64,000 nucleotides of DNA from Candidatus Bipolaricaulota bacterium (GCA_040752575.1 JBFMGK010000015.1:15823-79822), one strand, 5' to 3'. Counted from the stretch's first letter, positions 9,326 to 41,265 are shown. Program-made: numbers and translations. Notes: generated by a model not told the origin, from the letters alone.

Positions 9326-9335
9326 ATCTTCTCCT

Positions 9336-10655
9336 CTACAGGGTAACGCCCGTGCTGATCGAAGCGCGCGTCAGTCCGTATCGACCGAACGTCGCCTGCA
9401 ACGAGATGGTGCCCGGCGAGAAGCGGAACGTGAACTGCGTCGCCAGGCTTGCGAAGCCGAACCTCGCGCCTCGCTGCGCGAAGGTGATTCCCGTCGAGGC
9501 CGAGAACTGCCCGTGGGATACGTTCAACCGTGTCGACAACCCTGTCAGACCGCGCTCGAGACCCGTGGCACGGATGTCAAACCCACCGTTCAGCGCACCC
9601 AGACTGAACGGCGTGTTGCACCCCATCGAGAGGGAGGTCACCTCGAGCTCGTCGAGTTGGAGTCCGAACTGAATACAGGCAAACGATCCCGACAGGCTCA
9701 GCCCCCTCACCTCGGTCGGCCCGCGGAACAGGGTCATCGACGCCCCCAACCCGATGCCTTCGGCCACCTTGGCCGAGAAACTCAGCGTCGCGGACAGGGT
9801 CTGGGTCGTGGAAACGCTGAACGAAATCCCGATCCGCGGGTCCATGAGAAAGAGCGGCCCGACCGCAAAGTCGCACAGTTCGAAGCCGCCTACGGATCCG
9901 TTCAGGTAGTAGTTGCCGGGATCCACGCGTCCGGCCGCCGAGTATCCCTTGACGACGGTCGCGCCCGGACTGGCATTGAACCCCGCCGAGAGCGAGAGCG
10001 ACAGGCCAAGCTGCGAACTCCACGAAACGTCGAGAATGCCCCCGCACGAGAAGGTCTGGTCGGCAAACTCGTAGAACAGGGGGTCATACGATGCGTTCGG
10101 GTTCGGAAAGCTCGTGTCCAGGATCATGAGCAGGTGCCGGAAGTGGAATCCCCCGACGTCGAACGACGAGGTGAGGCGCGAGGTGACGAAGAAGATGTCG
10201 CCGTAGGGGATGACGATCGCGTTGGGAAGGTTGTTCACGTCGGTGACCGCCTCAAACGGAACGGCCATCCACATCTCGCAGGCGAGCGTGACGTCCTCGA
10301 ACAGCACACCGAGGAGGCGGAACGGCTCGATCCGCAGGTCGCCGGTCGCCACGCCGTGCTCCGGACCGGCCATGTTCGTGGCCGCATCCAAAGCGCCTCC
10401 GATCGCCGAGTCGCGAACGCTCACACGAAGACTCGATGCGATGCCAAACTCCAGCTCGGCAAACTCGCTCGGCGTGTCCAGCACCAGATCGCCCGTGAGC
10501 GAACTAGGGATCCGGCGCGCAACGAAATCCAGGCCGAACTGCCCGGAGATCTGCCCGTGCGCCGCCCCGCCCGCGAGCACCAGGCACGCCATCGCGCAGA
10601 TCATCGCGCGACGCACAGAAGCCCGCCTCGCCTTTCCCCTTGGCCATCCCCCCAT
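9336..10655 (-). CDS. Secreted or outer-membrane protein with a signal peptide, possibly a beta-barrel; gene immediately upstream of the giant repeat protein
   Basis: Its stop lies 10 nt from the giant protein's start on the same strand. There is a signal-like MICAMACLVLAGGAAHG segment (alternative start at 10604). The composition is G/S/T/F/L-rich with alternating hydrophobic stretches and an aromatic C-terminal region. No family was recognised. Confidence 0.55.
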   Translation of the reverse strand: MGGWPRGKARRASVRRAMICAMACLVLAGGAAHGQISGQFGLDFVARRIPSSLTGDLVLDTPSEFAELEFGIASSLRVSVRDSAIGGALDAATNMAGPEHGVATGDLRIEPFRLLGVLFEDVTLACEMWMAVPFEAVTDVNNLPNAIVIPYGDIFFVTSRLTSSFDVGGFHFRHLLMILDTSFPNPNASYDPLFYEFADQTFSCGGILDVSWSSQLGLSLSLSAGFNASPGATVVKGYSAAGRVDPGNYYLNGSVGGFELCDFAVGPLFLMDPRIGISFSVSTTQTLSATLSFSAKVAEGIGLGASMTLFRGPTEVRGLSLSGSFACIQFGLQLDELEVTSLSMGCNTPFSLGALNGGFDIRATGLERGLTGLSTRLNVSHGQFSASTGITFAQRGARFGFASLATQFTFRFSPGTISLQATFGRYGLTRASISTGVTL

Positions 10656-26572: not shown

Positions 26573-27511
26573 TTGACGGGGCTTGCCGCGCTCCCCACCG
26601 GCATCTACTCTGTCGCCGTGCGCGCCCACCGACTGCTGCAGCGGACAGACCGTCTACTGATCGCCGCGGGGATCCTCGTCGTTCTTACGGGGCTCGCCGT
26701 CGGAGCGATCCTGCCCGGGTACGTCGGCCTGCATCACGACGCATTCCGCGACCGTTCGTTGGCCTACGTTCAGGCCTTCGCTGCGACCGCCGAGCCTTGG
26801 CTCGATCGCGGTGCGGTCGACGTCGTCGAAACGTTGAGCCAGGTCTTTGTCTCCGGAAGCGTCGTCTCACTCGAGGTCGTGCACGGCGATCGATCGATCG
26901 TCAGCGCCGGCGACCCGCTGCCGGCCGAGCCTGCGACCTCCTTTGGGCACGCCGATCGACGAACCGCATCCGGACGCCGCGTCGTCGACGTGAGCGCGCC
27001 CCTCCCTTCCCTGGACGGACACGTCCGCGCAGCGATCGACGTCTCGTCGGTCACCGCATCGACGCGTCGCGCCATCGTTCTGGGCGTAGGGGGGGCCGTT
27101 CTGTTCGACGCCACGGTTCTCGGGTTGGTCGCATGGGCGTTGCGCGGCGCGCGACAGCGCCCCGCGGCCCCCGTGGAAGCCGCCCGCTCCCCCTCGGAGG
27201 CCCCGGCCCTTCGGCTCGGCGAGCTTGCGATCATCCCATCGAGGCGCGAGGCGTCGTTCGCCGGCCGGCCGCTGCGGCTGACGCCGAAGGAGTACGCGTT
27301 GCTGACCCTGCTTGCCGCCGAGCCCGGTCGCGTGTTCGCCGAGCAGGAGATCCTCGCGGCCGTCTGGCCCGACTCCCCCTATGCCGACGCCCGGGACATC
27401 AAGCAGTACATCTACTTGCTGCGGCGGAAGCTCAGCAAGGCGGACCCGCGCGGCCGAGACGTGATCGTCAACGTTCCCGGCTTCGGGTATCGCTTGGAAG
27501 ACGCCCATTGA
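26573..27511 (+). CDS. Membrane-anchored transcriptional regulator with a C-terminal OmpR/PhoB-type winged-helix DNA-binding domain and no receiver domain
   Basis: An N-terminal transmembrane segment (LLIAAGILVVLTGLAVGAIL) and a second hydrophobic segment (AIVLGVGGAVLFDATVLGLVAWAL). The C-terminal trans_reg_C signature is LRLTPKEYALLTLLAAEPGRVF...LLRRKL...GFGYRL. Confidence 0.65.
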   Translation: MTGLAALPTGIYSVAVRAHRLLQRTDRLLIAAGILVVLTGLAVGAILPGYVGLHHDAFRDRSLAYVQAFAATAEPWLDRGAVDVVETLSQVFVSGSVVSLEVVHGDRSIVSAGDPLPAEPATSFGHADRRTASGRRVVDVSAPLPSLDGHVRAAIDVSSVTASTRRAIVLGVGGAVLFDATVLGLVAWALRGARQRPAAPVEAARSPSEAPALRLGELAIIPSRREASFAGRPLRLTPKEYALLTLLAAEPGRVFAEQEILAAVWPDSPYADARDIKQYIYLLRRKLSKADPRGRDVIVNVPGFGYRLEDAH

Positions 27512-27592
27512 CCGGCCGTTGACCGGCCTTCGATGGACCGCGTGAGCGGCGCGGGGAGACTGGAAGGCGTGCAAGGGCACGAAGGAGGTGCC

Positions 27593-28129
27593 ATGAAGAG
27601 GATGATCGTCCTGTGCGCCCTGGTCGCCGTAGCGCTCGCCGTTCCCGCGAACGCCGACGAGACCGGTGCGCCAGAGACTCTCTCGGTGGAGGGCCGCCTC
27701 GAGGCGTTCGCCGTGAGGCTTCGCCTCGGGCTTTCGGTCGCCGCCGTGGCCGTCTACTCGCCGACGGTCTCGGACGCGCACAGTCAGGCCCACCGGCTCT
27801 CGACGCTGCTGCGCGGCGATGATCGGGAGGAGATCCCCGGGCTGCTCACCGAGTCGGAGAGGCTACCCGAGTGGGTCGCCTCGCGGCCGTTTGGGGCCGA
27901 CGCGTACCGACCGCTCCTCGCCGCGGCAGCCAACGTTCACACGTACCTGCGCCTCGCGGGCGACGCCGCGGCCGAGGCGATACGACAACGAACCCTTCTT
28001 GGCGCGACGAGGAGTCTCTACGAGGTGTACGCCTACCTCGTCGCGGCGTGGGCCAAGCCGGTCGATGGCGTCGTCGTCCCCGGACTGGAAGCCCTGCTTC
28101 GCGCGTTCGATCTCCCGATCTCCCCGTGA
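27593..28129 (+). CDS. Secreted hypothetical protein
   Basis: RBS GAAGGAGGTG; signal peptide MKRMIVLCALVAVALAVPANA. It is co-oriented with, and 80 nt downstream of, the membrane-anchored regulator. Confidence 0.5.
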   Translation: MKRMIVLCALVAVALAVPANADETGAPETLSVEGRLEAFAVRLRLGLSVAAVAVYSPTVSDAHSQAHRLSTLLRGDDREEIPGLLTESERLPEWVASRPFGADAYRPLLAAAANVHTYLRLAGDAAAEAIRQRTLLGATRSLYEVYAYLVAAWAKPVDGVVVPGLEALLRAFDLPISP

Positions 28130-28138
28130 CCCAAGCGG

Positions 28139-28978
28139 CTAGAACCCGTAGGCCGCGGGGTCGAAAGCGTCCAGGTTCTGCGGATCGAACGTCTCGGCGG
28201 ACAGACTCGCGTCCGGGCGACGCAGGCCCGAGAGCCAAAGCGTCGAGACATCTCCCGACCCGAGGTCGCGGCCGACCATCTCCTCGGGAACTCGCCGTCC
28301 CTCGAACTCGCCGAGACGCTCGACGGAGATCTGCTTCGCAAGCGCTCCGGTTTCGGCGTAACCCTCCAGGCGCAGGAACAAGTCTGCTTCTTGGTCGACC
28401 CAGAGCAGAATGCGGGCGAACTCCGCATCCGGTCCGCCGCGCGGCGTGAGTTCCAGGACCCAGACCTCGCGAGATTCCTCGCCCACTACGAGGGTCTCCT
28501 CGCGCAGCACGGAGGCAGTGTAGTCGTCCTGCAGGTCCCCGGCCCCGGCGATGTCTTCGTACGTCAGCGTGCTGCCGGCGAAGCTTCCTGACTGGTCCTC
28601 CTCCGAGATCAGTTCCTTGGTCAGGCCGAACGAGGAGATGTAGAGCCACATCCTGGTCGCTGTCGCGTCGTTCTCCGGCGTCTCGAGAAGGAAGATCAGC
28701 CCCTCGTCGTCGCCGCCGAGGAAGTACATCAGCGCGTGACTCGTCCCGGCGTCGTCGCTCTGTGCGGCGACAGCCATCCGGACGTCCGTGGTGACGCCCG
28801 TCGCGTAGACGTTCGCGACGTCGAGGGATAAGAGAATCCCCTCGCGGCTCTCCGCGCCGCCGATACTGAAGGCGTCCTGCATTCGATCGAGGATCTCGTC
28901 GCCAGTCTGCGCGAGGCCGGAAGCGGCCGCCGCGAACAGGAAGAGCGCCGTCAAGATCCCCAGTGTCGTAGATTTCAT
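28139..28978 (-). CDS. LolA-like outer-membrane lipoprotein-sorting-type protein
   Basis: Signal peptide MKSTTLGILTALFLFAAAASGLA. Its start overlaps the MMPL stop by 4 nt. The LolA-like fold family commonly pairs with MMPL/RND exporters. Confidence 0.55.
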   Translation of the reverse strand: MKSTTLGILTALFLFAAAASGLAQTGDEILDRMQDAFSIGGAESREGILLSLDVANVYATGVTTDVRMAVAAQSDDAGTSHALMYFLGGDDEGLIFLLETPENDATATRMWLYISSFGLTKELISEEDQSGSFAGSTLTYEDIAGAGDLQDDYTASVLREETLVVGEESREVWVLELTPRGGPDAEFARILLWVDQEADLFLRLEGYAETGALAKQISVERLGEFEGRRVPEEMVGRDLGSGDVSTLWLSGLRRPDASLSAETFDPQNLDAFDPAAYGF

Positions 28979-31359
28979 GAAGGCCTCCTTGAGGTTTGCT
29001 CCCGATGCGCGCGCCGTTGGGCGATTCGATCAATCCACCCTGCCGCCGTGAGAAACCGCGGGGACGCGGCGGCGAGGGCCGCCGGGAGAATCGTCAGCGC
29101 GGCGCTCGCGCTCGCCGCCATCGCCAGCGCCAGGAGTCCGCCGAAGCTCCGAAAGGCGACGAATCGCGACAGACACAGAACGAGGAGTCCGGCCATCACG
29201 GCGGCCGCGTTGAACGCAATCGCCCGTCCCGCGGTCTCTGCGGTCTTCTGCGCCGCGTCCGCGAGGTTCCGGCCCGCGCGGCGCTCGTTTCGGACTCTGG
29301 CCACGTAGTGCACCGCGTAATCGATGCCCGTTCCCATCGTGATGCTGGCGATGGTCGCCGACGCGAGGTTGAGCGTAATGCCGGCGACGGACATCACGGC
29401 GAAGATCGCAAGAACCGTGAACACGAGCGGGATGAGACTGACCAACCCCGCGATGACCGACCCCATGATCGCAGCGACGATCGCCCCGACCACGAAGGTC
29501 GACGAGAAGATGTTGGTGATCTGGCTCCGGATGAGCTGGCGGCTCATCGCGTCGAAGAACTGCGTCGGGCCCACCATGTCCGCCTTCGCGACGTCGGCGA
29601 AGTGCGTCCGAAGATAGCCGCGTACATCGCGAACCAACTGGGCCTTGGTTGCGCCGTCGGCCCGCGGGTACATGCCTACGATCTGGCCGGCGGAGAAGTC
29701 ACGCAGCGCGATCGCGCCGAGGTCGCCTCCCTGAAACGCGAACAGCGCCAGCAACTGGGAGACCTGCTTGCGATCGTCCGGAATCGCGTTGTACGCCGGA
29801 TCGCCGTCGTGAAAACGCAGGTTCAGTTCCCGCACGAGGTCGGTGATCGACGCCGTCTTGCGCACTCCGAAGGAACGCAGCGCGGTCTCGAGTTCGATCA
29901 AGCGACGCAGGAGCTCCGGGTCCTTGAGCCCATCTCGGCGGCCCGTGTCGATCTCGATTCGCAACTGCTCGGCGCCGGAGAAGTGAACGTCGAAGTCCTT
30001 CATCCCAAGGACCGCCGGATGCTGCTCGCCGAGGAAGCCGGTCATCGACGAGTCCGTCTTGATGAGGGGAACCGTCGCGGCAAGGACTCCGACAAGAAGG
30101 AGCGCCGCGACGAGCACCATCCGCGGGCGGCGCGCCGCGGCCCGCGAGAGCCCACCAAGGACTCGGCCAAGCCGGCTTCGCCCCTCACCGAGGTCCTTCA
30201 CCGGCCGCTCGGGGAGGACGGCCAGAACTGCGGGGACAACGACGAGGGCGAGGACCAGGGCCAGGCCGACGCCGGCCGCCGCGATAAGTCCGAACTCGGC
30301 GAACAGCGGCATCGACGACGTCAACAGGGACAGGAAACCGCCCATCGTCGTCAGGCCGGCCATGGTCACCGCCCCGGCAATCGAAGGCACTGCAACGACG
30401 ATGGCCTCGCGACGCGAGACGCCGCGTGCGCGTTCTTCGTCGACCCGGTGCATCACGTGGATTCCATAGGCGATCCCGATCGCAAGCAGCAGCACGGGAA
30501 GAACGAAGGTGATGATCGAGACGGGGACGCCGAGCAGGGCCATCGGACCGAACGTCCAGACGACGGCCAGACCCACGACGAGGAGCGGGATCCAAACGCC
30601 GCGGAGCGAGCGGAACGAGAGAAACAGCACGACGCACATCGCGGCGAGGACGATCGGAATCAAGACGACGAGATCGCCCTGAATGGATTCGGTGAGCGCA
30701 AGCATCATGTACGCTTCGCCGCTGATCGAGTACTTCTCCGGCGGCGTGCCCAGTTCGCCGACCACTGCCCGCACGGATTTGGCCACGTCGAATTGGGGCG
30801 CGTCCCGGTCCGACCGCACGAGAATCGCGATCGCCGACTCGTCCGAGGCGACCAAGAGGTCTTGCATCGTCTGGATTCCCAGGACACGGTCGCGGTACGC
30901 GGCGATCGTTTCCGGCGTCGTCGGGGCGAGGCCGCCCGGAGCCGCTGGCCCGACGTCGAGGGCGTCGGCCGAGCTGACGATCACGTCGCGCCCCAGGGGC
31001 CCGTCGACTTCGGCGACGCCGGGGATGTCCGCTAGACCGGCCTCCAGAGCCTCGACCTTCGCCAACGTACGCGCGTTGAACACCCCGTCCGGCGAAGCCA
31101 CCGCCACCATGAGCAGGGTCTGCGACCCGTAGCGCGCCTCGGCCTGATCCATGAGGAGATAGGCCGGATCGGTGGAGTCGACGTAGGTCGCGAAGTCGAC
31201 ATTCGTATCCAGTCGTGCCAGCGGCACGGCAAGAGCGATCGAAACCGCGCAGACCGCAAAGAGCACGGCGCGCGCGTGGTCAACGATCCATGCGGTCGCC
31301 CTCGCGATCACTGCAGCCAACCCCCGTTCACGAAGGCACTGGCCGCGAGCGCGGCCCAC
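28975..31359 (-). CDS. MMPL-family RND transporter (HpnN-like lipid exporter type)
   Basis: About 790 aa, 12 transmembrane segments in two bundles with two large periplasmic loops, and the MMPL family architecture. The start codon is uncertain because it overlaps the upstream gene. Confidence 0.8.
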   Translation of the reverse strand: MGRARGQCLRERGLAAVIARATAWIVDHARAVLFAVCAVSIALAVPLARLDTNVDFATYVDSTDPAYLLMDQAEARYGSQTLLMVAVASPDGVFNARTLAKVEALEAGLADIPGVAEVDGPLGRDVIVSSADALDVGPAAPGGLAPTTPETIAAYRDRVLGIQTMQDLLVASDESAIAILVRSDRDAPQFDVAKSVRAVVGELGTPPEKYSISGEAYMMLALTESIQGDLVVLIPIVLAAMCVVLFLSFRSLRGVWIPLLVVGLAVVWTFGPMALLGVPVSIITFVLPVLLLAIGIAYGIHVMHRVDEERARGVSRREAIVVAVPSIAGAVTMAGLTTMGGFLSLLTSSMPLFAEFGLIAAAGVGLALVLALVVVPAVLAVLPERPVKDLGEGRSRLGRVLGGLSRAAARRPRMVLVAALLLVGVLAATVPLIKTDSSMTGFLGEQHPAVLGMKDFDVHFSGAEQLRIEIDTGRRDGLKDPELLRRLIELETALRSFGVRKTASITDLVRELNLRFHDGDPAYNAIPDDRKQVSQLLALFAFQGGDLGAIALRDFSAGQIVGMYPRADGATKAQLVRDVRGYLRTHFADVAKADMVGPTQFFDAMSRQLIRSQITNIFSSTFVVGAIVAAIMGSVIAGLVSLIPLVFTVLAIFAVMSVAGITLNLASATIASITMGTGIDYAVHYVARVRNERRAGRNLADAAQKTAETAGRAIAFNAAAVMAGLLVLCLSRFVAFRSFGGLLALAMAASASAALTILPAALAAASPRFLTAAGWIDRIAQRRAHREQTSRRPS

Positions 31360-31814
31360 AGGTCGTCCAGCGGGCCGACGGCAGACGCAAGCCCGGCGAA
31401 CGCGGCGGCGATGCCCTCTTGGAACAGGGCCATGGCCTGCGCCGCATCCGGCCGAGACGAAGGGTCGCCGGCCACGAGCAACCAGATCCGGGTGGCGCTG
31501 CCGTCATCGATTCCCCGCGGGATGATAAGGATAAGGTCGTACGGCGCTTCGGGGGCCTGGCGGCCTGCGAGCGGGTCGTCGAATGGACCGAGCCCGTCGG
31601 CGAACAGCACGGTGAGATCGGCCACTCCGCTCTGCCGGATGGCCCCCGCAATGCCCACGACGCGCATCGTCGAAGTGAAGGTCTTCGTCCCGTCCACGAG
31701 CAACACGCGGTAGCGCGCCTCCTGAGCGGCCGTCGGTGCGACAACGAACAGCACTGCCAGGGCCGCGGCGGCGAAACCTAGGCCCCAACGCCGTAGGCGA
31801 GAGGTCAACATGGG
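31308..31814 (-). CDS. Secreted hypothetical protein
   Basis: The start MLTSRLRRWGLGFAAAALAVLFVVAPTAAQ is preceded by GAGAAAGGAGAACCC. It is translationally coupled between the TetR and MMPL genes. Confidence 0.5.
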   Translation of the reverse strand, partial: PMLTSRLRRWGLGFAAAALAVLFVVAPTAAQEARYRVLLVDGTKTFTSTMRVVGIAGAIRQSGVADLTVLFADGLGPFDDPLAGRQAPEAPYDLILIIPRGIDDGSATRIWLLVAGDPSSRPDAAQAMALFQEGIAAAFAGLASAVGPLDDLWAALAASAFVNGGWLQ

Positions 31815-32440
31815 TTCTCCTTTCTCAGACTGCACCACATGAACTGGGCCAACTCGCGCGTCACGCGAGCCAGGGTGTCGCTCGACGCCTCCGCGCCGTA
31901 GACCGACATGTAGAGCGGCAGGGTCTCCTGCATCGCGAGAAGGACGCACGCGCCGACCCTCGGATCGAACGCCCGGACCTCGTTGAGCAAGGTCCCGCGA
32001 TCAAGCAGGCGCGCGATCCGATCGAGAAGGTACCGATGGAAACTGCGCATCCTCTCATCGCCATCGCTCAACGCCTGCAGAGAGCGGCGACTCAGAACTT
32101 GAACGAGATCCGGCTCCTTGCGGAACAGGTCGATCTGCAGCGCAACAAACGCCTCGAGCACCTCGGGAACGGGAAGCGCGGAGTCGAGCAGTTTGTCGAC
32201 CGCATCCAGCATGGCATCGGTGTAGCGGCGGAATACGTCGATGAGGATCTCGTCTTTGCTCTCGTAGTAGAGATAGACCGTCCCCTTGGCGATGCCCGCT
32301 TCCTGCGCGATGTCGGCGACGGTTGTATCGTGAAACCCGCGCTGGGCGAACACGCGAAGTGCGGCGCGGTGGATTTGGTCTCGCTTCTCTTCTCGGCAAG
32401 TTGGCACGTGAGCCTCCGTGGTGACTGACCGGTCAGTCAT
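31805..32440 (-). CDS. TetR/AcrR-family transcriptional regulator
   Basis: The TetR HTH is FAQRGFHDTTVADIAQEAGIAKGTVYLYYESKDEIL. Confidence 0.85.
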   Translation of the reverse strand: MTDRSVTTEAHVPTCREEKRDQIHRAALRVFAQRGFHDTTVADIAQEAGIAKGTVYLYYESKDEILIDVFRRYTDAMLDAVDKLLDSALPVPEVLEAFVALQIDLFRKEPDLVQVLSRRSLQALSDGDERMRSFHRYLLDRIARLLDRGTLLNEVRAFDPRVGACVLLAMQETLPLYMSVYGAEASSDTLARVTRELAQFMWCSLRKENPC

Positions 32441-32491
32441 TCTACAGGCTGGCGCCATCCGTTCAAGGCTCGGGAAAGAAGGGCTTCTGGG

Positions 32492-33496
32492 TCAGGCGGT
32501 CCGCGTTCGCCATGCCCCGAGGAGGGCGAGAACGCGAACCGTCCAATCGACGGCGCGGGCGTCGCGTCGACGCCACGACTCGGAAAGCGGCAGGGCCCAC
32601 GACCACGCCGCACGGGGTCCGAAGTCCCAAAGGCCGTCGGGCCGGCGTCGTTCGGCCAACGCATCGGCCAACGGGGCGGTGGCCATCCCCGCCACGGAGA
32701 ACCCGGCAAGAAGCTCGTGCGACAGGAACCATCGTTCCCCCGCTCCCGAGTCCGGAGTCTGGACCGGCGCCGAGACCGGGACGCCGTAGCAGCCGATGCC
32801 GTCAGGCTTGCGCCAGATCCACCGCACGAGCGAGGCGGCGAGGCCGTCCGGCAGGTCGGCCGCCCGGGCCGCGAGGAGCGCAAGGGTGTAGCGATTGGAC
32901 AAGACGAGATACGACCCCGTGACGGTCGCCCCGGTCAACGCGTGGTGTGCCTCGGCCTCCGCCGCGGCGTCGTACGACCCATCGGACAACGTTCGCCGCG
33001 CGATCTCTTGCCACAGGCGCCACGGGACGTCGAGCGCTTCGTGGCCGGGCTCGATCCGAGCGAGAGCGGACGCGGCAAACAGCTGAAGCCCCGTCGTCCA
33101 GCGGTCGTTGCGCTCCGGCGGGTCTGGCGGAACGGCTCTCCCGGCCAGGACGTCAGCCAAGTAGCGAACGGCCTTCGCGAGGATCGGGTGCCGTGCGTCC
33201 AGCCCGAGCGCGAGGGCACGCTCGACCGCCCACTCCGTGGTTGGCACGGCCGACCGCGACGACGTATCGCGCGAGTGCAGCCGGCCCCAACCGCCGTCGG
33301 GTCGCTGCTCGGCGATCAGTCTTTCGACGTGAATCGAGGTGTCGACTTCCCGGCGCGCGGCATCGACTCGCTCCTCGCCGGCGCTGCCGCGGAGGACGTC
33401 GCGCGCAAGCCGCAGCCGCACGACGGGGTCCGACGTCCCGCGCGTGAGTTCCAGCGCCAGGGCCCGTGCGTCGTCTTGCGTCAGACGGCTACTCAT
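32492..33496 (-). CDS. Hypothetical protein with prenyltransferase/terpene-cyclase-type (alpha-alpha toroid, QW-like) repeats
   Basis: The motif EQRPDGGWG matches the Q-x-x-DGGWG repeat of the prenyltransferase/squalene-cyclase beta-subunit fold, and a second degenerate copy is RRPDGLWDFG. The protein is helical and 334 aa long. Family assignment is tentative. Confidence 0.45.
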   Translation of the reverse strand: MSSRLTQDDARALALELTRGTSDPVVRLRLARDVLRGSAGEERVDAARREVDTSIHVERLIAEQRPDGGWGRLHSRDTSSRSAVPTTEWAVERALALGLDARHPILAKAVRYLADVLAGRAVPPDPPERNDRWTTGLQLFAASALARIEPGHEALDVPWRLWQEIARRTLSDGSYDAAAEAEAHHALTGATVTGSYLVLSNRYTLALLAARAADLPDGLAASLVRWIWRKPDGIGCYGVPVSAPVQTPDSGAGERWFLSHELLAGFSVAGMATAPLADALAERRRPDGLWDFGPRAAWSWALPLSESWRRRDARAVDWTVRVLALLGAWRTRTA

Positions 33497-34750
33497 ACCT
33501 CAACGCGTCCACGACGGCCATCCGCGCTCCGCGACGCGCGGGCCACAGCCCCGACAGGGCGCCGATCAGGAAGGACGAAAGGAGCGTCACCAAGATGAGT
33601 CCCGGGCTCACGACGAACGGGAACGTCACCCCGCCGGGGAGGTTCGCAAACGTGTTGATGGCCCAGCAAGCCGCCGCGCTCAACAGGAGACCCGCCACGG
33701 TCCCGATCGCGCCGCCGACAAGTCCGATCAAGCCCGACTCGATCAGAAAGATGGAAAGCACGTGGCGGTTCTTGGCCCCTACGGCCTTCATCACGCCGAT
33801 GTCCTTCGTGCGTTCGAGGACCGACGTGAACATCGTGTTCATCACGCCCACTCCGCCGACGATCAACGAGATCCCAGCGAGGCCGGCGAGGAAGACGCTG
33901 ATCGAGCCCAGGAGCGTGTCGATGAAGTCGTTGATGTCGCCCGACGTCACGGCCGCGACCCGCGACCCTTCAGCCTTGAGCGCCGTCTCGGCACGGTCGG
34001 CCACGTCGTCCACCTTGAAGCCGGGAAGGATCTTCACGGCCGTCACAAGGTAGTCGTTGCCCTCCGGCCAAAGCTGATCCATCGCGGCGTTGGGGATGTA
34101 CATCGTGTCCTCGGTCGCCCCGATGCCGCCCGAGAAACCCTGGCTCTCGTCCTCGTCCGAAGCTTTGAGGATGCCGATGACGCTCATCGTCATCTCGCTC
34201 GTCTTCTCTCCGGCGATCAGCAGGGAATCGCCGACCGCGACGTTGAGGCGCTCGGCCAACTCGGCCCCGAGGACGACGACGTCCACGTCGCCTTCTTCGA
34301 TGTCACGTCCGCCCGGCTCGAACTCCGTCTCGGGGGCGAACGCCTTGAACTCGGTGGAGAACTCCGGCGAAATCCCCATGACGGGGAAGAAGCCCTGCGC
34401 GGCTTTGCCGTCGGCTCCCGTCCCACCCTGAACGAAGGCCGTCCTCTGCCGGATGGCCGCCACGGCCTTGACGCCTTCCACGCGCTGCAGCGTCGGCAGG
34501 TCGAGCGCGAACTGCGTCGCCCCGCCGCCATGGCCGCGCGTGAACGTGTCCTCCTCCATGATGACGAAGGTGTCCACGCCGAAGACTTTCGAGACCTGGC
34601 CCTTCATCATCCCCTCGAGGCTCAGGCCGATCGAGATCAAACCCACGACGGCAGCGATGCCGATCATCACGCCGAGCACGGCCAAGAAGCTTCGCAGCTT
34701 GCGATGCAAGATGCTCTGGGCCGCCAACCGCAGAAACTCGCTAACCATGG
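33489..34750 (-). CDS. ABC transporter permease, FtsX/MacB-type
   Basis: An N-terminal transmembrane segment, a large periplasmic domain and a C-terminal FtsX-like 3-TM bundle. It overlaps the ATPase gene. Confidence 0.8.
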
Positions 34751-35427
34751 CGCACCTCTTCAAGAACCCGCCCATCGCGCAGGCGGATGATGCGCCCGGC
34801 GATCGCCGCCGCATCGGGATCGTGCGTGATCAGGATCATCGTCTTGCCCTCGTCGGCGCACAGCCGTTTGAGGAGATCCAGGATCGTCGCACCGGTCTCG
34901 GAGTCGAGGTTCCCCGTCGGCTCGTCGGCCAGGATGATCTCCGGGTTGTTCGCTAGAGCCCGGGCGATCGCAACCCGCTGGCGCTCTCCGCCCGAGAGTT
35001 CGTTCGGGCGATGCTTCACGCGCTCCCCCAGACCGACCTTCTCCAGGAGAGAACGAGCCCGCTCGGCGCGTTCGCGACGCCCGACGCCGAGGAAGATCAT
35101 CGGCAGTTCTACGTTCTGTTGCGCGGTGAGCGTCTGGATCAAGTTGAAGGTCTGGAAGACGAAGCCCACCTTCTTGCCGCGCAGCGTCACGAGCTCGTCC
35201 TCGCCGAGCCGGCCCACGTCGTGCCCTTCGAGGGACGCCGAGCCCTCGCTCGGCGTGTCGAGCGCGCCGAGGATGTGCATGAGCGTCGACTTCCCGGAGC
35301 CCGACGGCCCCATGATCGCTACGATCTCACCCTTCTCAATCGCCAGGTCGAGGCCGCGGAGGGCGTGAACGACCGTCTTGCCCAGCGCGTAGTCCTTGGT
35401 GACGCCTTCGAGATGGAGCAGTCCCAT
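34741..35427 (-). CDS. ABC transporter ATP-binding protein (MacB/LolD-type)
   Basis: Walker A GPSGSGKST, signature LSGGERQRVAIARAL, Walker B ILADEPTGNLD. Confidence 0.9.
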   Translation of the reverse strand: MGLLHLEGVTKDYALGKTVVHALRGLDLAIEKGEIVAIMGPSGSGKSTLMHILGALDTPSEGSASLEGHDVGRLGEDELVTLRGKKVGFVFQTFNLIQTLTAQQNVELPMIFLGVGRRERAERARSLLEKVGLGERVKHRPNELSGGERQRVAIARALANNPEIILADEPTGNLDSETGATILDLLKRLCADEGKTMILITHDPDAAAIAGRIIRLRDGRVLEEVRHG

Positions 35428-35429
35428 GT

Positions 35430-36023
35430 CTAGCTCCCGCTCACGGTGTACTCGACGAGCTCGAGCGAGAAGACCGGGACCCACTGACCGTCGCGCTCTT
35501 CCTCAACGCGGATGAGCGGCGAGATGTAGACCGGGTGAGACAACGCAAAGGCGACCGTCGTCCGCGTCTCAGGGCTGTCCGGATCGATCAACACCCCCTG
35601 CAGCGACCACACGCCCGCCACCGTGACGCCCGTGATCTCCACGAACGACCCGCCGCCGGGAAGAAGGTACTCCTGCCCCTCCTGAAGACGGCTGCGTTGA
35701 TCCATCAGCGCCTGAAGGGACGAGTAGCTGACGTCGTCGCCGCTGCCCGAACTGACGCGCGTCGCCCCGAAGATGAAGCCGAACGCTTCGAGCTCGTCCT
35801 CGGTGCCCGTTCCCTCGGTGACCATGCGGACGGTGTACGTCCCGTCCCCGTGGGCTGTGACCGTCAGCTCGAGCGGTTGCGGCTGCTCCACATCCTCCGT
35901 CCGAATGCTGTAGACCATGCGCGTGACTCCGGTGGGGAACGCGTTGAGATCCGCCTGCCCCAGCGCGGCGGCCGCAAGCCCCAGAACCACTATCAGACCG
36001 ACAAGAACCGAGATCTTCTTCAT
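35430..36023 (-). CDS. Secreted/lipoprotein-like hypothetical protein, first gene of the MacB-type ABC cluster
   Basis: Signal peptide MKKISVLVGLIVVLGLAAAALGQA. Its stop lies 3 nt before the ATPase start. Confidence 0.5.
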   Translation of the reverse strand: MKKISVLVGLIVVLGLAAAALGQADLNAFPTGVTRMVYSIRTEDVEQPQPLELTVTAHGDGTYTVRMVTEGTGTEDELEAFGFIFGATRVSSGSGDDVSYSSLQALMDQRSRLQEGQEYLLPGGGSFVEITGVTVAGVWSLQGVLIDPDSPETRTTVAFALSHPVYISPLIRVEEERDGQWVPVFSLELVEYTVSGS

Positions 36024-36101
36024 GGCATTCCTCTCTTTCGCTTCAACTCATCGCTCTCTCATGCTATCCCACGGCGCAGCCTGCCGACCCGTCGCGAGTA
36101 C

Positions 36102-37931
36102 TCAGGGCGAGACCTCGACCCGCCCGCGGAACTGACTCATGTAGAGCCGGTAGTACGAACCGCGAGACGACATAAGCTCGTCGTGCGTCCCGTGCTCGAC
36201 CACCTCGCCCCCGTCGATCATCAGAATCTGGTCCGCGCCGCGGATCGTCGAGAGGCGATGCGCAATGACAAAGCTCGTCCGGCCCTTCATGAGCTCGAGC
36301 AACGCCTCCTGAATGTGAACTTCGGTTCGCGTGTCCACGCTCGATGTCGCTTCGTCGAGCACGAGGATCCGCGGATCGGCGAGGATCGCCCGCGCGATGG
36401 CCAGGAGCTGCCGCTGCCCCTCGGACAGATTGGCTCCGCGCTCCGAGAGCAGCGTGTCGTAACCGTGCGGGAGTCGCCGGATGAATCCGTCGGCGTTGGC
36501 CAGTCGCGCCGCGGCGACGACCTCCTCGTCGGTGGCATCGAGCCGTCCGTACCGGATGTTCTCCTTCACGCTCTCGGCAAAGAGGAACGTCTGCTGCAAA
36601 ACGATCCCGAGTTGTCTTCGGAGGCTGTCGCGCGTCACCGTCCGGATGTCGACTCCGTCGATCCGAATCGCGCCCGATTCCAGGTCGTAGAACCTTGTGA
36701 GCACGTTGACGAGGGTCGTCTTGCCGGCTCCGGTCGGTCCGACGAGGGCGACGCGCTCCCCGGGCCGCGCGGAGAGCGTCACGTGTCGCAACACAGGTTC
36801 CCCCTTGACGTACGAGAACGAGACGTCGTCGAACTCCACGTGTCCCTCGACGCGTGGAAGATCGATCGCGTCGGGCGCGTCGCGGAGATCGGGAACGGTG
36901 TCGAGGGCCTCGAAGACCCGCTCTGCGCCGGCCAGCGCAGCCTGAACCTGATTGTAGAGGTCGCCAAGTTGGCGAAGCGGCTCGGCGAACCGCCGCGAGT
37001 ACGTGATGAAGGTCGCAATGAGCCCGATGCTCGCGAGCCCCTTCAACGTGAGGTATCCGCCGAGACCGACGATCACCGCGACGTTGGCGTTGGACAGGAT
37101 GCCCATCATCGGCATCAGGAGGAGAGAGTAGGTCATCGCCGTCGCACCCACCCGCCGCACGGCCTCGTTGGCTCCGTCGAACGCGTCGAGGACCCGTCCC
37201 TGCTGGCCGAACGCCATGACGACGCGCTGGCCGCTGTATGCCTCTTCCAGCGTTCCATTCAAGGTTCCAAGGTTCTTCTGGTACTCGCGGAACGCGCCCC
37301 TCGTCTTGCGCCCGACGGCCCCGACGAGGCCGATCATGAGCGGAAGCACGATCATCGAGGCCAGGGCAAGCCACACGTTGAGCAGGAACATCACGATAAG
37401 GATCCCCACAAGCGTGAGCATCCCCGTGAAGAGCATCGTGACATTCTGAGAAAGGACGCGACTGATCGCGTCCATGTCGTTCGTCAGCCGACTCATCAGT
37501 TCTCCGGCGGACCGGCCGTCGTAGAAACGCAGAGACAGCGTCTCGAGGTGGGCGAACAGGTCTCGCCGTAGAACGCGCATCGCGCGTTGCGCCACGGTAG
37601 CCATGACGACACCCTGACCCGTGTGACCCAGCCACGCGACGACGAACGCCGCGACCATCCAGCCGACCACTTCGAGTATCGCCGCAAGGCCTGACCGCGC
37701 GACAATCTCGTTCACCGCGCGCCCCATGAGGTACGGTCCCAACAGGTCCATGGCCGTCGCCAGCGTCGCGACCAGGACCACGAGGCCGAGGGTCACCCGG
37801 TACGGCTTCAGATACGCTAGCAGCCGCACCAGCGAACCGCGCGCGTTCTTTGGGTGTTCGAAGCGCATCCCGTGGCCCCGCGCCGGCCGCATGAGGGAAG
37901 GAGAGGGTTGGCGACGGCTCGGCTCGCTCAT
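36102..37931 (-). CDS. ABC exporter, fused permease-ATPase (type I exporter, MsbA-like half transporter)
   Basis: A 6-TM domain plus an NBD (GPTGAGKTT, LSEGQRQLLAIARAIL, LVLDEATSSVD). Confidence 0.9.
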   Translation of the reverse strand: MSEPSRRQPSPSLMRPARGHGMRFEHPKNARGSLVRLLAYLKPYRVTLGLVVLVATLATAMDLLGPYLMGRAVNEIVARSGLAAILEVVGWMVAAFVVAWLGHTGQGVVMATVAQRAMRVLRRDLFAHLETLSLRFYDGRSAGELMSRLTNDMDAISRVLSQNVTMLFTGMLTLVGILIVMFLLNVWLALASMIVLPLMIGLVGAVGRKTRGAFREYQKNLGTLNGTLEEAYSGQRVVMAFGQQGRVLDAFDGANEAVRRVGATAMTYSLLLMPMMGILSNANVAVIVGLGGYLTLKGLASIGLIATFITYSRRFAEPLRQLGDLYNQVQAALAGAERVFEALDTVPDLRDAPDAIDLPRVEGHVEFDDVSFSYVKGEPVLRHVTLSARPGERVALVGPTGAGKTTLVNVLTRFYDLESGAIRIDGVDIRTVTRDSLRRQLGIVLQQTFLFAESVKENIRYGRLDATDEEVVAAARLANADGFIRRLPHGYDTLLSERGANLSEGQRQLLAIARAILADPRILVLDEATSSVDTRTEVHIQEALLELMKGRTSFVIAHRLSTIRGADQILMIDGGEVVEHGTHDELMSSRGSYYRLYMSQFRGRVEVSP

Positions 37932-39736
37932 CGCGACCTCCCCGTTTCGCCGGCGTCCCCCAGCTGAGAGCGGTAGATCTCGCGGTAGATCGGGCTCGAC
38001 GCGAGCAACTCGGTGTGCGTTCCCTGCGCGGCGATCCGGCCGCCATCTAGAACGAGGATCTTGTCCGCGAGGAGTACGGTCGACACGCGCTGGGCCACGA
38101 TGAACCGCGTGGTGGTGTGCTCGGACTCGACGATCAGCCGGTCGAGCGCATCTTGGAGACGGATCTCGGTCTCGATGTCCACGGCGCTCGTCGAGTCGTC
38201 GAGGATCAGAACCTTCGGCCGGACGAGCAGCGCCCGCGCGATGGCCATCCGCTGCCGCTGGCCGCCCGACAGCGTGACACCGCGCTGCCCGATCAGCGTC
38301 GCGTAGCGGTCGGGAAACGATTCGATGAACTCCTCGGCCTGCGCGGCGCGCGCCGCAGCCACAATCTCGGCCTCGGTCGCATCCGGTCGCCCGTAGGCGA
38401 TGTTGTCGCGGATCGTCCCGGCGAACAGCACGGCCTCCTGGAGCGCCACGGCGACGTGGGCGCGGAGGGACCCGATCTGAAGGTCGCGAACGTCGACTCC
38501 GTCGAACGTGATGCGCCCCCCGGTGACGTCGTAGAAGCGCGGGATCAGGTGGATGAGCGTTGACTTGCCCGACCCGGTCGCGCCGAGCAGGGCCACGGTC
38601 TCCCCCGGCTCCGCGGTGAACGACACCCCTTGGAGAACCGGAGTCGCGTCCGCCCCGTCATAACTGAACGAGACGTCGTCGAACGCAATGCGCCCGCGCG
38701 GCGACGTCAGAGCCCTCGCCCCGGCGCGCTCGCGCACACGAGGTTCGGCATCGAGGACCTCGAGGATGCGGCCCGCCGAGGCATCCGCCGCCGAGAGCGG
38801 GCCGAGCATGCCGGCCAGCATCATCAGCGGGAAGAGCGCGAACATCAGGTAGTTGATCGACGCCACGACCTGGCCCACGGTCATGTCGCCGCCCAGGGAC
38901 GCGACGCCGCCGATCCAGATCGCCGCGACGATGGCGCTGTTGAGAATCAGCGACATGAGCGGAAGCAGGAACGCGAGGAGCCGCATGACGCGAACGCTGG
39001 TCTCGGTCAGCGCAATGTTTGCGGCCTCGAAGCGCGCCTTCTCGTGATCCTCGCGAACGAAGGCTTTGACGACGCGCACTCCGGCCAGATTCTCCTGCAA
39101 CACGGTGTTGAGCCGATCGAGGCGCCCCTGCACGGCGGCGAACAGCGGGCGAGCCTTACGGGCGAACCAGTACACAAACACCACGATGACGGGAACGAAC
39201 GCGAGCATCATCAGCGCGAGCCGCGGACTCGTGAGGACGAGCAGCACGACCGAGCCCGCGATCCAGACGGGAGCGCGCGTCAGAATCCGCAGCGACATCA
39301 TGACGACCATCTGCGCCGCGTTCACGTCGCTCGTCGATCGGGTGATCAGCTCGCCCGTCCGCAGCTCGTCAAGGTTCGCAAACGAGAACGACTGAGCCTT
39401 TCGGAACAGCGCGCTGCGCACGTCGGCCCCGAAGCTCATCGCCACGCGAACCGACAGCGCGTTGTTCGCCAGGGCAAACAGCGCCGAGACGAGCGACGCG
39501 CCGAGCATGATGAGCGCCGTCGTCCAGACCACGCGCAAGTCGCCTCGCGCAATTCCTTCATCGATGATCCGCTGCGAGAGCCGCGGAACGACGAGATCCG
39601 CCGCGACCATCCCGAAGAGAAGGACGAGCGCTCCGATCGCCTGGCGGCGATACGGTCGGACGAAAGCGAAGAGACGGCGGAGCGACTTCATGCCGCGTCC
39701 TCTCCTTCGGTCCCGACGTTGCGGAGGGTGCTGCAT
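37928..39736 (-). CDS. ABC exporter, fused permease-ATPase (partner half transporter)
   Basis: A 6-TM domain plus an NBD (GATGSGKST, LSGGQRQRMAIARALL, LILDDSTSAVD). Its 4-nt overlap with the downstream paralog suggests a heterodimeric exporter. Confidence 0.9.
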   Translation of the reverse strand: MQHPPQRRDRRRGRGMKSLRRLFAFVRPYRRQAIGALVLLFGMVAADLVVPRLSQRIIDEGIARGDLRVVWTTALIMLGASLVSALFALANNALSVRVAMSFGADVRSALFRKAQSFSFANLDELRTGELITRSTSDVNAAQMVVMMSLRILTRAPVWIAGSVVLLVLTSPRLALMMLAFVPVIVVFVYWFARKARPLFAAVQGRLDRLNTVLQENLAGVRVVKAFVREDHEKARFEAANIALTETSVRVMRLLAFLLPLMSLILNSAIVAAIWIGGVASLGGDMTVGQVVASINYLMFALFPLMMLAGMLGPLSAADASAGRILEVLDAEPRVRERAGARALTSPRGRIAFDDVSFSYDGADATPVLQGVSFTAEPGETVALLGATGSGKSTLIHLIPRFYDVTGGRITFDGVDVRDLQIGSLRAHVAVALQEAVLFAGTIRDNIAYGRPDATEAEIVAAARAAQAEEFIESFPDRYATLIGQRGVTLSGGQRQRMAIARALLVRPKVLILDDSTSAVDIETEIRLQDALDRLIVESEHTTTRFIVAQRVSTVLLADKILVLDGGRIAAQGTHTELLASSPIYREIYRSQLGDAGETGRSR

Positions 39737-40188
39737 CGGCAGTCCGACGCGCGTAGAAGACGCGCCCGCACGACGCGGAGGAGCCGCGCCAACGTCTCGA
39801 CGTCCGCCGGCTCAAGACAGGTTCCGATTTCCTCTTCGAGCCCGCGGAAGCAGTCCTCGGCTTCGGCGCGGAGGCCGCGCGCCTTGGCCGTGAGGTAGAC
39901 GCGCGACAGCCGTTGGTCGGCGGGGTCGGCGCGACGCTCGACCCAACCGTCGCGCTCCATGCGCTGCAGCATGGCGCTTACCGAGGCCGCAGTCAGTCGC
40001 AGGCGCCGAGCCACCTCGCCCTGGGTCACGCCTTCGTGATGTCCAAGGAAGAACAACGCCGGCCCCTGGGCCGGGTGCAGGCCGACCGCGTCGAGCCGTA
40101 CCCGCAGCCTCTCGCCCACCAAGCGACTAACCTGAAGCAAGAGCTGCCCGGCACTCCGTTGCGCCCCGTCGTCGTCGTAGAACTCCAT
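39688..40188 (-). CDS. MarR-family transcriptional regulator
   Basis: The MarR wHTH is VTQGEVARRLRLTAASVSAMLQRMERDGWVERRADPADQR. It overlaps the start of the ABC exporter pair. Confidence 0.8.
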   Translation of the reverse strand: MEFYDDDGAQRSAGQLLLQVSRLVGERLRVRLDAVGLHPAQGPALFFLGHHEGVTQGEVARRLRLTAASVSAMLQRMERDGWVERRADPADQRLSRVYLTAKARGLRAEAEDCFRGLEEEIGTCLEPADVETLARLLRVVRARLLRASDCRCSTLRNVGTEGEDAA

Positions 40189-40274
40189 GAGATCCTTAGC
40201 CTGTTGAATGTTAGATGGCTAAGTATACCGGTGCGATGCTCGGGGGCAAGGTGAACGGCAAGCGGAGATCGCCG

Positions 40275-40529
40275 CTAGGGGCGACGGTCCTTCAGCGCAT
40301 CGTGAATCCCGAAGATGGCCATGATGACCTCGCAGACGATGCGCAAGACGACGGGTCCGACGAGAAGGACGAGAATCCCGTTGAGAATCCCAATCCCCGA
40401 TCCGAACCGTCCGGCGTGGGTCGCGATCATCGCTACGCCTTCGGCAACGCAAAGCCCTACCCCGACCCAGAAGACGAGCTCGATGAAGATCGGGGTCAGG
40501 AACTTCCGGAACAGCAGGTAGTCGCGCAT
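40275..40529 (-). CDS. DUF4282-like small membrane protein
   Basis: MRDYLLFRKFLTPIFIELVFWVGVG...ILNGILVLLVGPVVLRIVCEVIMAIFGIHDAL is the typical DUF4282 two-TM pattern. The frame is 84 aa inside the longer 40275..40811 ORF. Confidence 0.5.
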   Translation of the reverse strand: MRDYLLFRKFLTPIFIELVFWVGVGLCVAEGVAMIATHAGRFGSGIGILNGILVLLVGPVVLRIVCEVIMAIFGIHDALKDRRP

Positions 40530-40683
40530 GCTCCCTCCTTGGTCGCTTTCGTCCCTAGCGCCGTACGATAGCCGAACGGGGACAGGCGGCCAAGCAGGGC
40601 CGGCCGGAACGCCGCACGAGATGGACGCGAGACGCGGGCGGCCTATCAACGGGTTCGTCCGCGGAGCGAGGGGGGAGAGGGTC

Positions 40684-41265
40684 GTGAACGTACTCGTCCT
40701 ACACGGGAGTGCACGCAAGGGCGGAGACACCGACGCCCTCGCCGAGAGCTTTCTCGGCGGGATGGCCGAGATCGGCTCCCAGGTCGTCCGCCACTTCTTC
40801 GCCATCGACATGAAGGTGGCTCACTGCCGCGGGGCGGAGTGCCTCGCCTGCTGCGCCGACGGCCAAGCCGGTCGCTGCGTCGTCGAAGACGACATGCAGC
40901 CGCTCTATCCCGCCCTCCGCGACGCGAACGTCGTGGTTCTGGCGACGCCGATGTTCTGGGGATACATGACGTCGCAATTGAAGACCGTGTTCGACCGGCT
41001 CGAGGCCGTGGCGTCGCCGACCTACTTCGGCGGAAAGGACTTCGTCCTCCTCGTCGGCTACCGACGCTACTACGGGTCCATGGTCGAGTGGCTGGGGCGG
41101 ATCGCACGGGGGTTTGGGAGCCGTTTCCACTTCCTGGTCTGCCAAACGTACGACCCTGCAACCGATCGCGACGTACCGATCCGCGAGACACCCCATCGCC
41201 TCGCAGAAGCCCGCGATCTGGGGCGTCGCGTCGCCGCGGCGTGCGGCGGCGGATCAGACGCCTAG
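40684..41265 (+). CDS. NAD(P)H-dependent FMN reductase / iron-sulfur flavoprotein family (flavodoxin-like fold)
   Basis: A GTG start gives MNVLVLHGSARKGGDT, the typical N-terminus of this family, followed by VVLATPMFWGYMTSQLK. Confidence 0.65.
   Translation: MNVLVLHGSARKGGDTDALAESFLGGMAEIGSQVVRHFFAIDMKVAHCRGAECLACCADGQAGRCVVEDDMQPLYPALRDANVVVLATPMFWGYMTSQLKTVFDRLEAVASPTYFGGKDFVLLVGYRRYYGSMVEWLGRIARGFGSRFHFLVCQTYDPATDRDVPIRETPHRLAEARDLGRRVAAACGGGSDA

Follow-up and report, generated by a model that had tools for sequence, protein, structure and literature searches.

Positions 28139-36023 of a 64,000-nucleotide (nt) stretch of DNA from a Candidatus Bipolaricaulota bacterium (GCA_040752575.1 JBFMGK010000015.1:15823-79822; the whole stretch is referred to here as the window) hold an array of transport genes that an earlier note had read as one pathway for modifying and exporting an isoprenoid. 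Our analysis points instead to an interval that is part of a 12-kb block of at least two, and probably three, adjacent hydrophobe-export units, a reading to which we give a probability of roughly 0.6. The units are separate, they are inherited independently of one another, and the 10 kb to either side contain no gene for terpenoid or hopanoid synthesis, all of which speaks against a single isoprenoid pathway.

The gene map was drawn from mechanically called open reading frames (ORFs), a reading of the gene junctions and a comparison with relatives. These agree with the earlier description in that the array at 28139-36023 lies on a single strand (minus) and contains the families that had been named. 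It holds eight genes, not the nine that had been counted (the list in the earlier note itself comes to eight), and it does not begin at 36023: three further genes on the same strand, ABC2, ABC1 and a MarR-family regulator, carry it on upstream to 40188, and the conserved synteny block spans 28139-40249. The features of this block, all on the minus strand and given in order of transcription, are as follows.

40196-40249, minus: promoter-like TTGCCC-N16-TATACT (40249-40222) followed by the stretch 40222-40196, upstream of MarR
39688-40188, minus: MarR-family regulator of 166 amino acids (aa), the first gene (Pfam MarR_2, 1.5e-18)
37928-39691, minus: ABC1 half-transporter, 587 aa, with ABC_membrane and ABC_tran domains and a 4-nt ATGA overlap between its start and the MarR stop
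36102-37931, minus: ABC2 half-transporter, 609 aa (assigned by Pfam), with a 4-nt ATGA overlap between its start and the ABC1 stop
36024-36101, minus: ABC2-sec197 spacer of 78 nt, with a -10-like GATAGCAT at 36068-36061
35430-36023, minus: sec197, a secreted protein of 197 aa, after the 78-nt spacer
34741-35427, minus: MacB/LolD-type ABC ATPase, 228 aa, beginning 2 nt past the sec197 stop
33489-34748, minus: type VII ABC permease (MacB_PCD and FtsX), 419 aa, overlapping the ATPase gene by 8 nt
32492-33496, minus: cytoplasmic protein of 334 aa with QW-like repeats, modelled as an alpha/alpha toroid, overlapping the permease stop by 8 nt (ATGAGTAG)
32422-32466, minus: promoter TTGAAC-N16-TAGAAT (32466-32439) and perfect 18-bp palindrome TGACTGACCGGTCAGTCA (32439-32422), in the toroid-TetR spacer
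31805-32407, minus: TetR-family repressor, 200 aa from the likely start GTG 32407, after an 84-nt spacer following the toroid
31308-31811, minus: small secreted protein, 167 aa, overlapping the TetR gene by 7 nt
28975-31311, minus: HAE3-type RND/MMPL transporter, 778 aa, with a GTG start at 31311 and a GTGA overlap with the small gene
28139-28978, minus: LolA_like / TP_0789-like (PF17131) periplasmic protein, 279 aa, with an ATGA overlap with the RND gene

Transcription units and their inheritance

Within 28139-36023 the junctions consist of a 2-nt gap, two 8-nt overlaps, an 84-nt spacer and then overlaps of 7, 4 and 4 nt. The tight packing described before is thus seen at every junction except that between the toroid and TetR genes, and it is here that the claim of translational coupling throughout breaks down. 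The 84 nt of this spacer (32408-32491) are untranslated and contain a promoter whose -10 element, TAGAAT, is abutted by the palindrome TGACTGACCGGTCAGTCA, and both elements are kept in four relatives (L012-L015) in which the surrounding spacer sequence is divergent. We predict that the palindrome at 32439-32422 is probably the TetR operator. The assignment of the regulator itself was borne out by a TetR_N domain (PF00440; 63.5 bits, 1.6e-17), its best NCBIfam match being the Bacillus-type FadR at 76 bits against a cut-off of 200, and on sequence grounds the combination of this domain with a predicted palindromic operator at its own promoter fits an autoregulated efflux repressor. Since an ATG at 32458 falls inside the promoter, GTG 32407, which is preceded by GGAGG, is the likelier TetR start. 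A single translationally coupled operon that takes in the TetR unit, which has a conserved promoter and predicted operator of its own, is thus not supported.

A promoter scan of 27900-40500 returned three minus-strand promoter-like sites where 0.6 would be expected, and two of the three fall exactly before the two regulator genes, MarR and TetR. Upstream of MarR, two repeats are found in the stretch at 40222-40196, the inverted repeat TTAGCCATCTAA and TTAGCC/GGCTAA, and the pattern TTGAC-N17-TATAGTTAGC..CTAA recurs upstream of the MarR gene in five relatives (L001, L004, L006, L012 and L014); this inverted-repeat stretch is probably the MarR operator, again as a prediction. The 78-nt spacer between ABC2 and sec197 probably holds an internal promoter, judging from its -10-like element and from the 13 relatives (L001, L004, L006, L008-L014, L016, L030 and L036) that share a conserved CTTCAC-AGGTTGCACAAGGTTG-..-GCGTAGCAT block before the sec197 homologue, with a direct repeat AGGTTG-N4-AGGTTG (10-bp spacing) and a TAGCAT element. 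Taken together, the block comprises at least two, and probably three, transcription units: unit 1 would be MarR-ABC1-ABC2, unit 2 would be sec197, the MacB-type ATPase, the permease and the 334-aa toroid, and unit 3 would be TetR, the small secreted protein, the HAE3-like RND pump and the LolA_like protein.

Direct repeats spaced by 10 bp are typical of winged-helix activator sites, and one such protein is encoded next to the block:

26573-28129, plus: convergent pair of genes, one for a 312-aa protein whose C-terminal domain is a winged helix of the OmpR/PhoB type, the other for a protein of 198 aa

The 312-aa protein occupies 26573-27511 (plus); a regulatory link between it and the AGGTTG repeat is only a guess. 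The 198-aa protein has no Pfam match, neither member of the pair has a PADLOC match, and their homologues hold the same relative position in L089, L090 and L092.

To see how these units are distributed we draw on contig look-ups and on 80 loci with a toroid homologue, found in a scan of one genome per species; the proteins of the window were compared with all the loci. The full 11-gene order is present in L012, L013, L014, L015 (partial) and the divergent L090, a recurrence by which the arrangement exceeds what chance adjacency would give. In five others (L001, L004, L006, L008 and L009) the genes from MarR to the toroid are followed by a homologue of the small protein, and TetR, RND and LolA_like genes are lacking; the flanks of these loci show the same synteny (UvrD, EamA, FMN reductase and two MFS genes). 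L088 and L089 have MarR-ABC-ABC-sec197-ATPase-permease and neither the toroid nor the RND unit, while L091 and L092 have the TetR-small-RND-LolA_like genes alone. The MarR gene is syntenic in all Bipolaricaulota-type loci. Finally, about 65 loci from other phyla carry the toroid alone, with neither a MacB nor an RND neighbour. The pieces are separable cassettes within a stable region, and the gene order proposed earlier, when checked for conservation, proved intact within a single sub-lineage but disrupted elsewhere, so that what the note had named as a refutation, an order not conserved among relatives, holds in part.

Several of these loci have particularities of their own. L090 possesses two TetR genes, a tandem pair that precedes the small-RND-LolA_like genes (4870-6157), and its toroid gene does not overlap the permease gene. 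In L013 the permease match is separated from the toroid by approximately 890 bp (~9110-10001), as compared with the 8-nt overlap in other relatives, and the permease match is weaker (55%), so that the locus may have suffered an insertion or a disruption. L088 (7575-7913) and L089 (7672-7926) have one more small ORF, of 84-112 aa and without a Pfam match, between ABC2 and the sec197 homologue. The small-protein homologue that follows the toroid without TetR, RND or LolA_like in the L001 group (L001 11106-11585, and likewise L004, L006, L008 and L009) is 50-58% identical to that of the window; it has a conserved TATGCTG element of its own in 4 of the 5 loci, L008 having TAGGCTG there. In L091 and L092 the small gene plainly belongs to the TetR-RND cassette, and in these two loci as well as in L090 it lies between TetR and RND.

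This pattern also bears on whether the units are functionally related at all. They could be unrelated efflux cassettes collected in a stable chromosomal region, with the toroid as a hitch-hiker, as the syntenic flanks (UvrD, EamA, FMN reductase, two MFS), found with or without the RND unit, would allow, and as would the solitary toroids of other phyla, whose 131 immediate neighbours fall into 122 Pfam families with none in more than 5 loci. We regard this as unlikely, for the 8-nt toroid-permease overlap is preserved in 12 of the 14 relatives possessing the two genes, even where protein identity has fallen to 54%, and the order of MacB-type genes, toroid and RND unit is kept in L090, whose RND unit is only ~46% identical to that of the window. 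The tie of the toroid to the MacB-type unit is real, and it is confined to this lineage. A conserved partner outside Bipolaricaulota was sought by all-versus-all neighbour clustering and rejected, as this found only local synteny among related Chloroflexota; in Bacillota the neighbours include beta-lactamase-family, MBL, methyltransferase, NUDIX and radical SAM proteins.

The toroid protein

The 334-aa protein matches, at 100% identity, a hypothetical protein from a metagenome-assembled genome of Candidatus Bipolaricaulota, carries the sequence 'QRPDGGWG' and has no Pfam, NCBIfam or PADLOC match. It lacks a signal peptide and is therefore cytoplasmic. Its family numbers approximately 770 clusters at 50% identity in both bacteria and archaea, with members in Bipolaricaulota, Chloroflexota, Bathyarchaeia, Thorarchaeota, Planctomycetota, Bacillota and others. 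An AlphaFold (AF2) model built on a 40-sequence alignment is all-helical, with 14 helices, at a pLDDT of 93.8 and a pTM of 0.92. Foldseek searches of the PDB with this model gave weak matches only (E 0.04-0.3, TM-score ~0.4), among them an unnamed Actinoplanes protein, the single-domain type II terpene cyclase MstE, drimenyl diphosphate synthase, squalene-hopene cyclase (SHC), the glycoside hydrolases GH105/GH127 and GH9, and complement thioester domains; a literature search for the best fold match, PDB entry 6ij1, found nothing. At the level of the family profile, SHC and lanosterol synthase appear at E ~0.1, wholly through the QW repeats, and seven weak stretches of the toroid align to the QW repeats of SHC. 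Sub-threshold matches to SQHop_cyclase_N (PF13249) were present in 6 of the 40 relatives (best E 1e-3). The model and these alignments identify the protein as an alpha/alpha toroid with squalene-cyclase-type QW repeats, and in this respect the earlier suggestion of a toroid fold with terpene-cyclase-like motifs holds.

Although it shares with the class II cyclases and the prenyltransferase beta subunits an all-helical toroid and repeated Q-x-x-D-G-x-W motifs that align to the SHC QW repeats, the protein departs from them in having no DxDD, no Cys/His zinc site and a single 334-aa domain. Neither DxDD nor DCTAE occurs in its sequence, the window protein matches neither SQHop_cyclase_N nor SQHop_cyclase_C and is not two-domain, and neither it nor its 40 relatives match PF00432 (prenyltransferase) or PF05147 (LanC). 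In the 40-sequence alignment D125 and D317 are the only invariant Asp residues and no Cys is invariant or nearly so, the invariant residues being mostly charged or aromatic (H74, E88, D125, E128, R132, E180, H184, R314, D317 and R321). With neither DxDD nor a conserved Cys, the protein is unlikely to be a canonical class II cyclase, a beta subunit of a prenyltransferase or LanC. Two specific identities were considered and are not supported, LanC for want of a conserved Cys, and a glycoside hydrolase because GH105, GH127 and GH9 stand only among equally weak fold matches.

One homologue (P0049) is fused to an N-terminal GNAT acetyltransferase of the RimJ/RimL type, and nine other extended homologues have no Pfam domain. 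Toroid homologues in L002/L025, L003, L073 and L074 lie near genes of the GNAT, APH, KNTase or serine beta-lactamase families. Together these lend a faint flavour of xenobiotic modification, with nothing consistent. We infer that in this lineage the toroid was added to unit 2, as a cytoplasmic protein which would bind or modify a small molecule, and which is not a canonical cyclase or prenyltransferase.

The features of the toroid also bear on the idea of one coupled operon, in which the toroid would modify an isoprenoid or other lipid and the MacB-type and MMPL/LolA systems would export it. Its fold and QW repeats, the full gene order in L012-L015 and the divergent L090, and LolA-type carriers, in unit 2 a predicted one, in both transport units are all in keeping with this. 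Set against them are the promoter and operator between toroid and TetR, modules that occur separately, a toroid devoid of DxDD, conserved Cys and any Pfam match, some 65 homologues without transporter neighbours, no isoprenoid genes within 10 kb, and an RND pump that is not HpnN (see below), and we consider such an operon very improbable.

Transporters and candidate periplasmic carriers

In unit 1, ABC1 and ABC2 are of the MsbA-related or multidrug type, ABC1 scoring below every equivalog cut-off, and would form a heterodimeric exporter of this type. A 660-aa ORF at 36064-38046 (minus) was rejected as a gene: it is a wrong-frame shadow of ABC2, the ABC2 of L001 giving 66.5% tblastn identity in the frame of 36102-37931. 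The homology of the underlying DNA is such that even the shadow frame gives ~45% identity with relatives in tblastn, and mechanical ORF lists are misleading in this 66% GC genome.

In unit 2 the earlier assignment of a MacB-like ATPase and an FtsX-type permease was confirmed. The ATPase matches ABC_tran in Pfam (7.8e-36), and the permease reaches 77.9 bits for MacB_PCD (PF12704; cut-off 27) and 76 bits for FtsX (PF02687; cut-off 25.5), which makes it a type VII ABC permease. Type VII ABC systems act through extracytoplasmic partners such as MacA, LolA or EnvC. LolD and LolC/E are among the best NCBIfam matches of this pair, with MacB slightly higher for both: MacB (NF007826, which describes a fused nucleotide-binding domain and permease) scores 256.7 bits with the ATPase and 120.3 bits with the permease against a cut-off of 966, LolD (TIGR02211) 238.9 bits against 307.75, and LolC/E (TIGR02212) 90.8 bits against 362.45. 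PADLOC gave only generic ATPase and LolE-type transmembrane matches for the two. Compared with MacAB-TolC, the block shares the MacB_PCD and FtsX permease and the MacB-like nucleotide-binding domain; it differs in that ATPase and permease are split genes and that none of the 11 block genes encodes a MacA/HlyD adaptor or a TolC-type protein.

The first gene of unit 2, sec197, had been called a lipoprotein. It does encode a signal peptide (MKKISVLVGLIVVLGLAAAALG/QADL), but the protein contains no cysteine and no lipobox. No Pfam or NCBIfam family, PF03548 included, and no PADLOC model matches it. Its homologues fall into 304 clusters; identity among the 120 listed ranges from 61 to 85%. Nearly all top Foldseek matches of its AF2 model in the PDB belong to the LolA superfamily (E 7.5e-4 to 1e-2), namely a Bacteroides outer-membrane lipoprotein carrier, MucB/RseB, LolA of Ehrlichia and Francisella, and LolB/LolA3 of Porphyromonas, so that the predicted fold resembles the LolA/RseB/MucB superfamily. 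If this modelled link holds, both energised extractors of the locus would have a LolA-type soluble partner of their own.

Unit 3 contains the other extractor. The RND protein matches MMPL (PF03176) at 166.5 bits (cut-off 20.5; 9.8e-49), and its best full-length match is HAE3 (TIGR00921; 290.4 bits, below the cut-off of 351.9). The MMPL part of the earlier description is accordingly sound, with HAE3 as the closest type, and the likeness to HpnN is not, as the scores are 121.3 bits against 751.85 for TIGR03480 and 67.8 against 1100 for NF052374. The LolA_like protein has a signal peptide and no lipobox, scores 106.3 bits for PF17131 against a cut-off of 30, a family also carried by all 50 homologues, and gives a sub-threshold DUF1329 match (22.5 bits, cut-off 23.1). 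Between TetR and the pump, the small 167-aa protein has a signal peptide, no lipobox and a conserved YRVLLVDGTKT motif; it has no Pfam match (MmpS, PF05423, included), no PADLOC match and nothing significant in a profile search of the PDB, and is analogous to MmpS by position alone. In the TetR/MarR-regulated MmpS-MmpL efflux operons of mycobacteria a local repressor is followed by a small secreted or anchored protein and an MMPL-type RND pump. Unit 3 has this same order and a locally encoded repressor, and differs in a small protein without PF05423 and in the extra LolA_like gene after the pump.

The pairing of an MMPL-type pump with a LolA-like carrier, as the earlier note had proposed, is genuine and recurrent, and has published precedents. 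In AmeABCD of Castellaniella defragrans, an HAE3 RND pump and a LolA-superfamily periplasmic protein serve monoterpene tolerance (PMC6394551). The block resembles this system in that an RND pump closest to HAE3 is encoded with a LolA-superfamily protein, and in inducible hydrophobe export if our reading is correct; the DUF1302 outer-membrane and COG4447 proteins of AmeABCD are absent from the block, which has TetR and the small secreted gene upstream of the pump instead. In the aryl-polyene clusters, ApeL/ApeM/ApeN include an RND protein and a LolA-like chaperone proposed to bring lipid to the outer membrane (PMC8253772). Here again the RND is paired with a LolA-like chaperone, but the ape genes lie inside a biosynthetic cluster, whereas the block has neither biosynthetic genes nor a LolB-like protein.

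Rfam found no match in 27000-41000. Elsewhere in the window, a 2076-aa ORF at 3095-9325 (minus) probably encodes a giant surface protein, given its TSP3 and bacterial Ig-like (Big_3_5) repeats.

Proposed hydrophobe export in an atypical diderm

The explanation we favour is one of inducible export. The two repressors, MarR and TetR, would release their operators once a hydrophobic ligand accumulates; the type VII ABC system, with ATP as its energy source, and the RND pump, with the proton-motive force as its own, would then extract hydrophobic molecules from the cytoplasmic membrane and hand them over to soluble carriers of the LolA fold, by which they would be shielded on their way across the periplasm. 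The setting would be a toga-bearing diderm without lipopolysaccharide (LPS). Bipolaricaulota have been described as atypical diderms that lack LPS genes and possess a toga-like outer membrane (PMC6092417; bioRxiv 10.1101/2025.11.21.689855, the latter on the cultured strain J31).

Several observations weigh against this reading. The sec197 model is of medium confidence (pLDDT 74), its Foldseek TM-scores are 0.3-0.45, and hhalign gave no signal between sec197 and the PF17131 family of the window; in view of this negative profile-profile comparison, the link of sec197 to LolA is at the level of the fold only. The block contains no outer-membrane component. The window's own spacer before sec197 retains the TAGCAT element alone of the block conserved in relatives, so that read-through from the MarR promoter is possible. 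The 8-nt overlap of toroid and permease argues for a real functional tie that goes beyond what separate export units account for, and the recurrence of the full order in the divergent L090 could mean a closer cooperation of the units.

A different role for the same proteins would be a housekeeping shuttle of the Lol kind, in which sec197 and the MacB-type ABC system deliver lipoproteins or lipids to the toga-like outer membrane and the RND/LolA_like pair acts as a second lipid shuttle. In favour of it, the Lol system is reported to be practically absent from Terrabacteria (bioRxiv 10.1101/2021.05.31.446380) while Bipolaricaulota are diderm, and the LolA-like predicted fold and strong conservation of sec197 (61-85% identity among the 120 homologues listed), like the presence of LolD and LolC/E among the best matches of ATPase and permease (MacB being slightly higher), fit such a function. 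We nevertheless judge it unlikely: ATPase and permease fall far short of the LolD and LolCE equivalog cut-offs, MarR and TetR repressor genes with a multidrug-type exporter alongside (the TetR unit lying directly under the promoter and predicted operator of its repressor) are typical of inducible efflux, several relatives do without the RND unit at the locus, and the kinship of sec197 with LolA does not extend beyond the fold. The comparison with LolCDE-LolA itself shows a shared design, a type VII ABC system with a separate ATPase and a four-transmembrane permease with a large periplasmic domain, plus a soluble protein of predicted LolA-like fold. The block differs in scores below the LolD/LolCE cut-offs, a sec197 without PF03548 and another gene order, and in having MarR and TetR and the appended toroid. 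Bolder still, and in our estimation quite improbable, is the notion of a new shuttle, independent of Lol, made up of sec197, the MacB-type ATPase, its permease and the toroid. It would bring lipids or lipoproteins from the cytoplasmic to the toga-like outer membrane, with sec197 as the periplasmic carrier and the toroid as a cytoplasmic partner preparing or selecting a possibly isoprenoid cargo.

Under the favoured reading of adjacent hydrophobe-export units, the locus is composed of known kinds of transporter in a lineage-specific arrangement, together with three uncharacterised accessory families. Hydrophobe traffic across the periplasm is poorly known in LPS-less diderms such as Bipolaricaulota and Thermotogota, from which canonical Lol is reported to be absent, and two neighbouring systems, each with an inner-membrane extractor and a soluble protein of LolA type (in the case of sec197 by its predicted fold), are reasonable candidates for such traffic, or for solvent and hydrocarbon tolerance. 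The analysis further delimits the QW toroid, sec197 and the small periplasmic protein as three protein families that are as yet uncharacterised.

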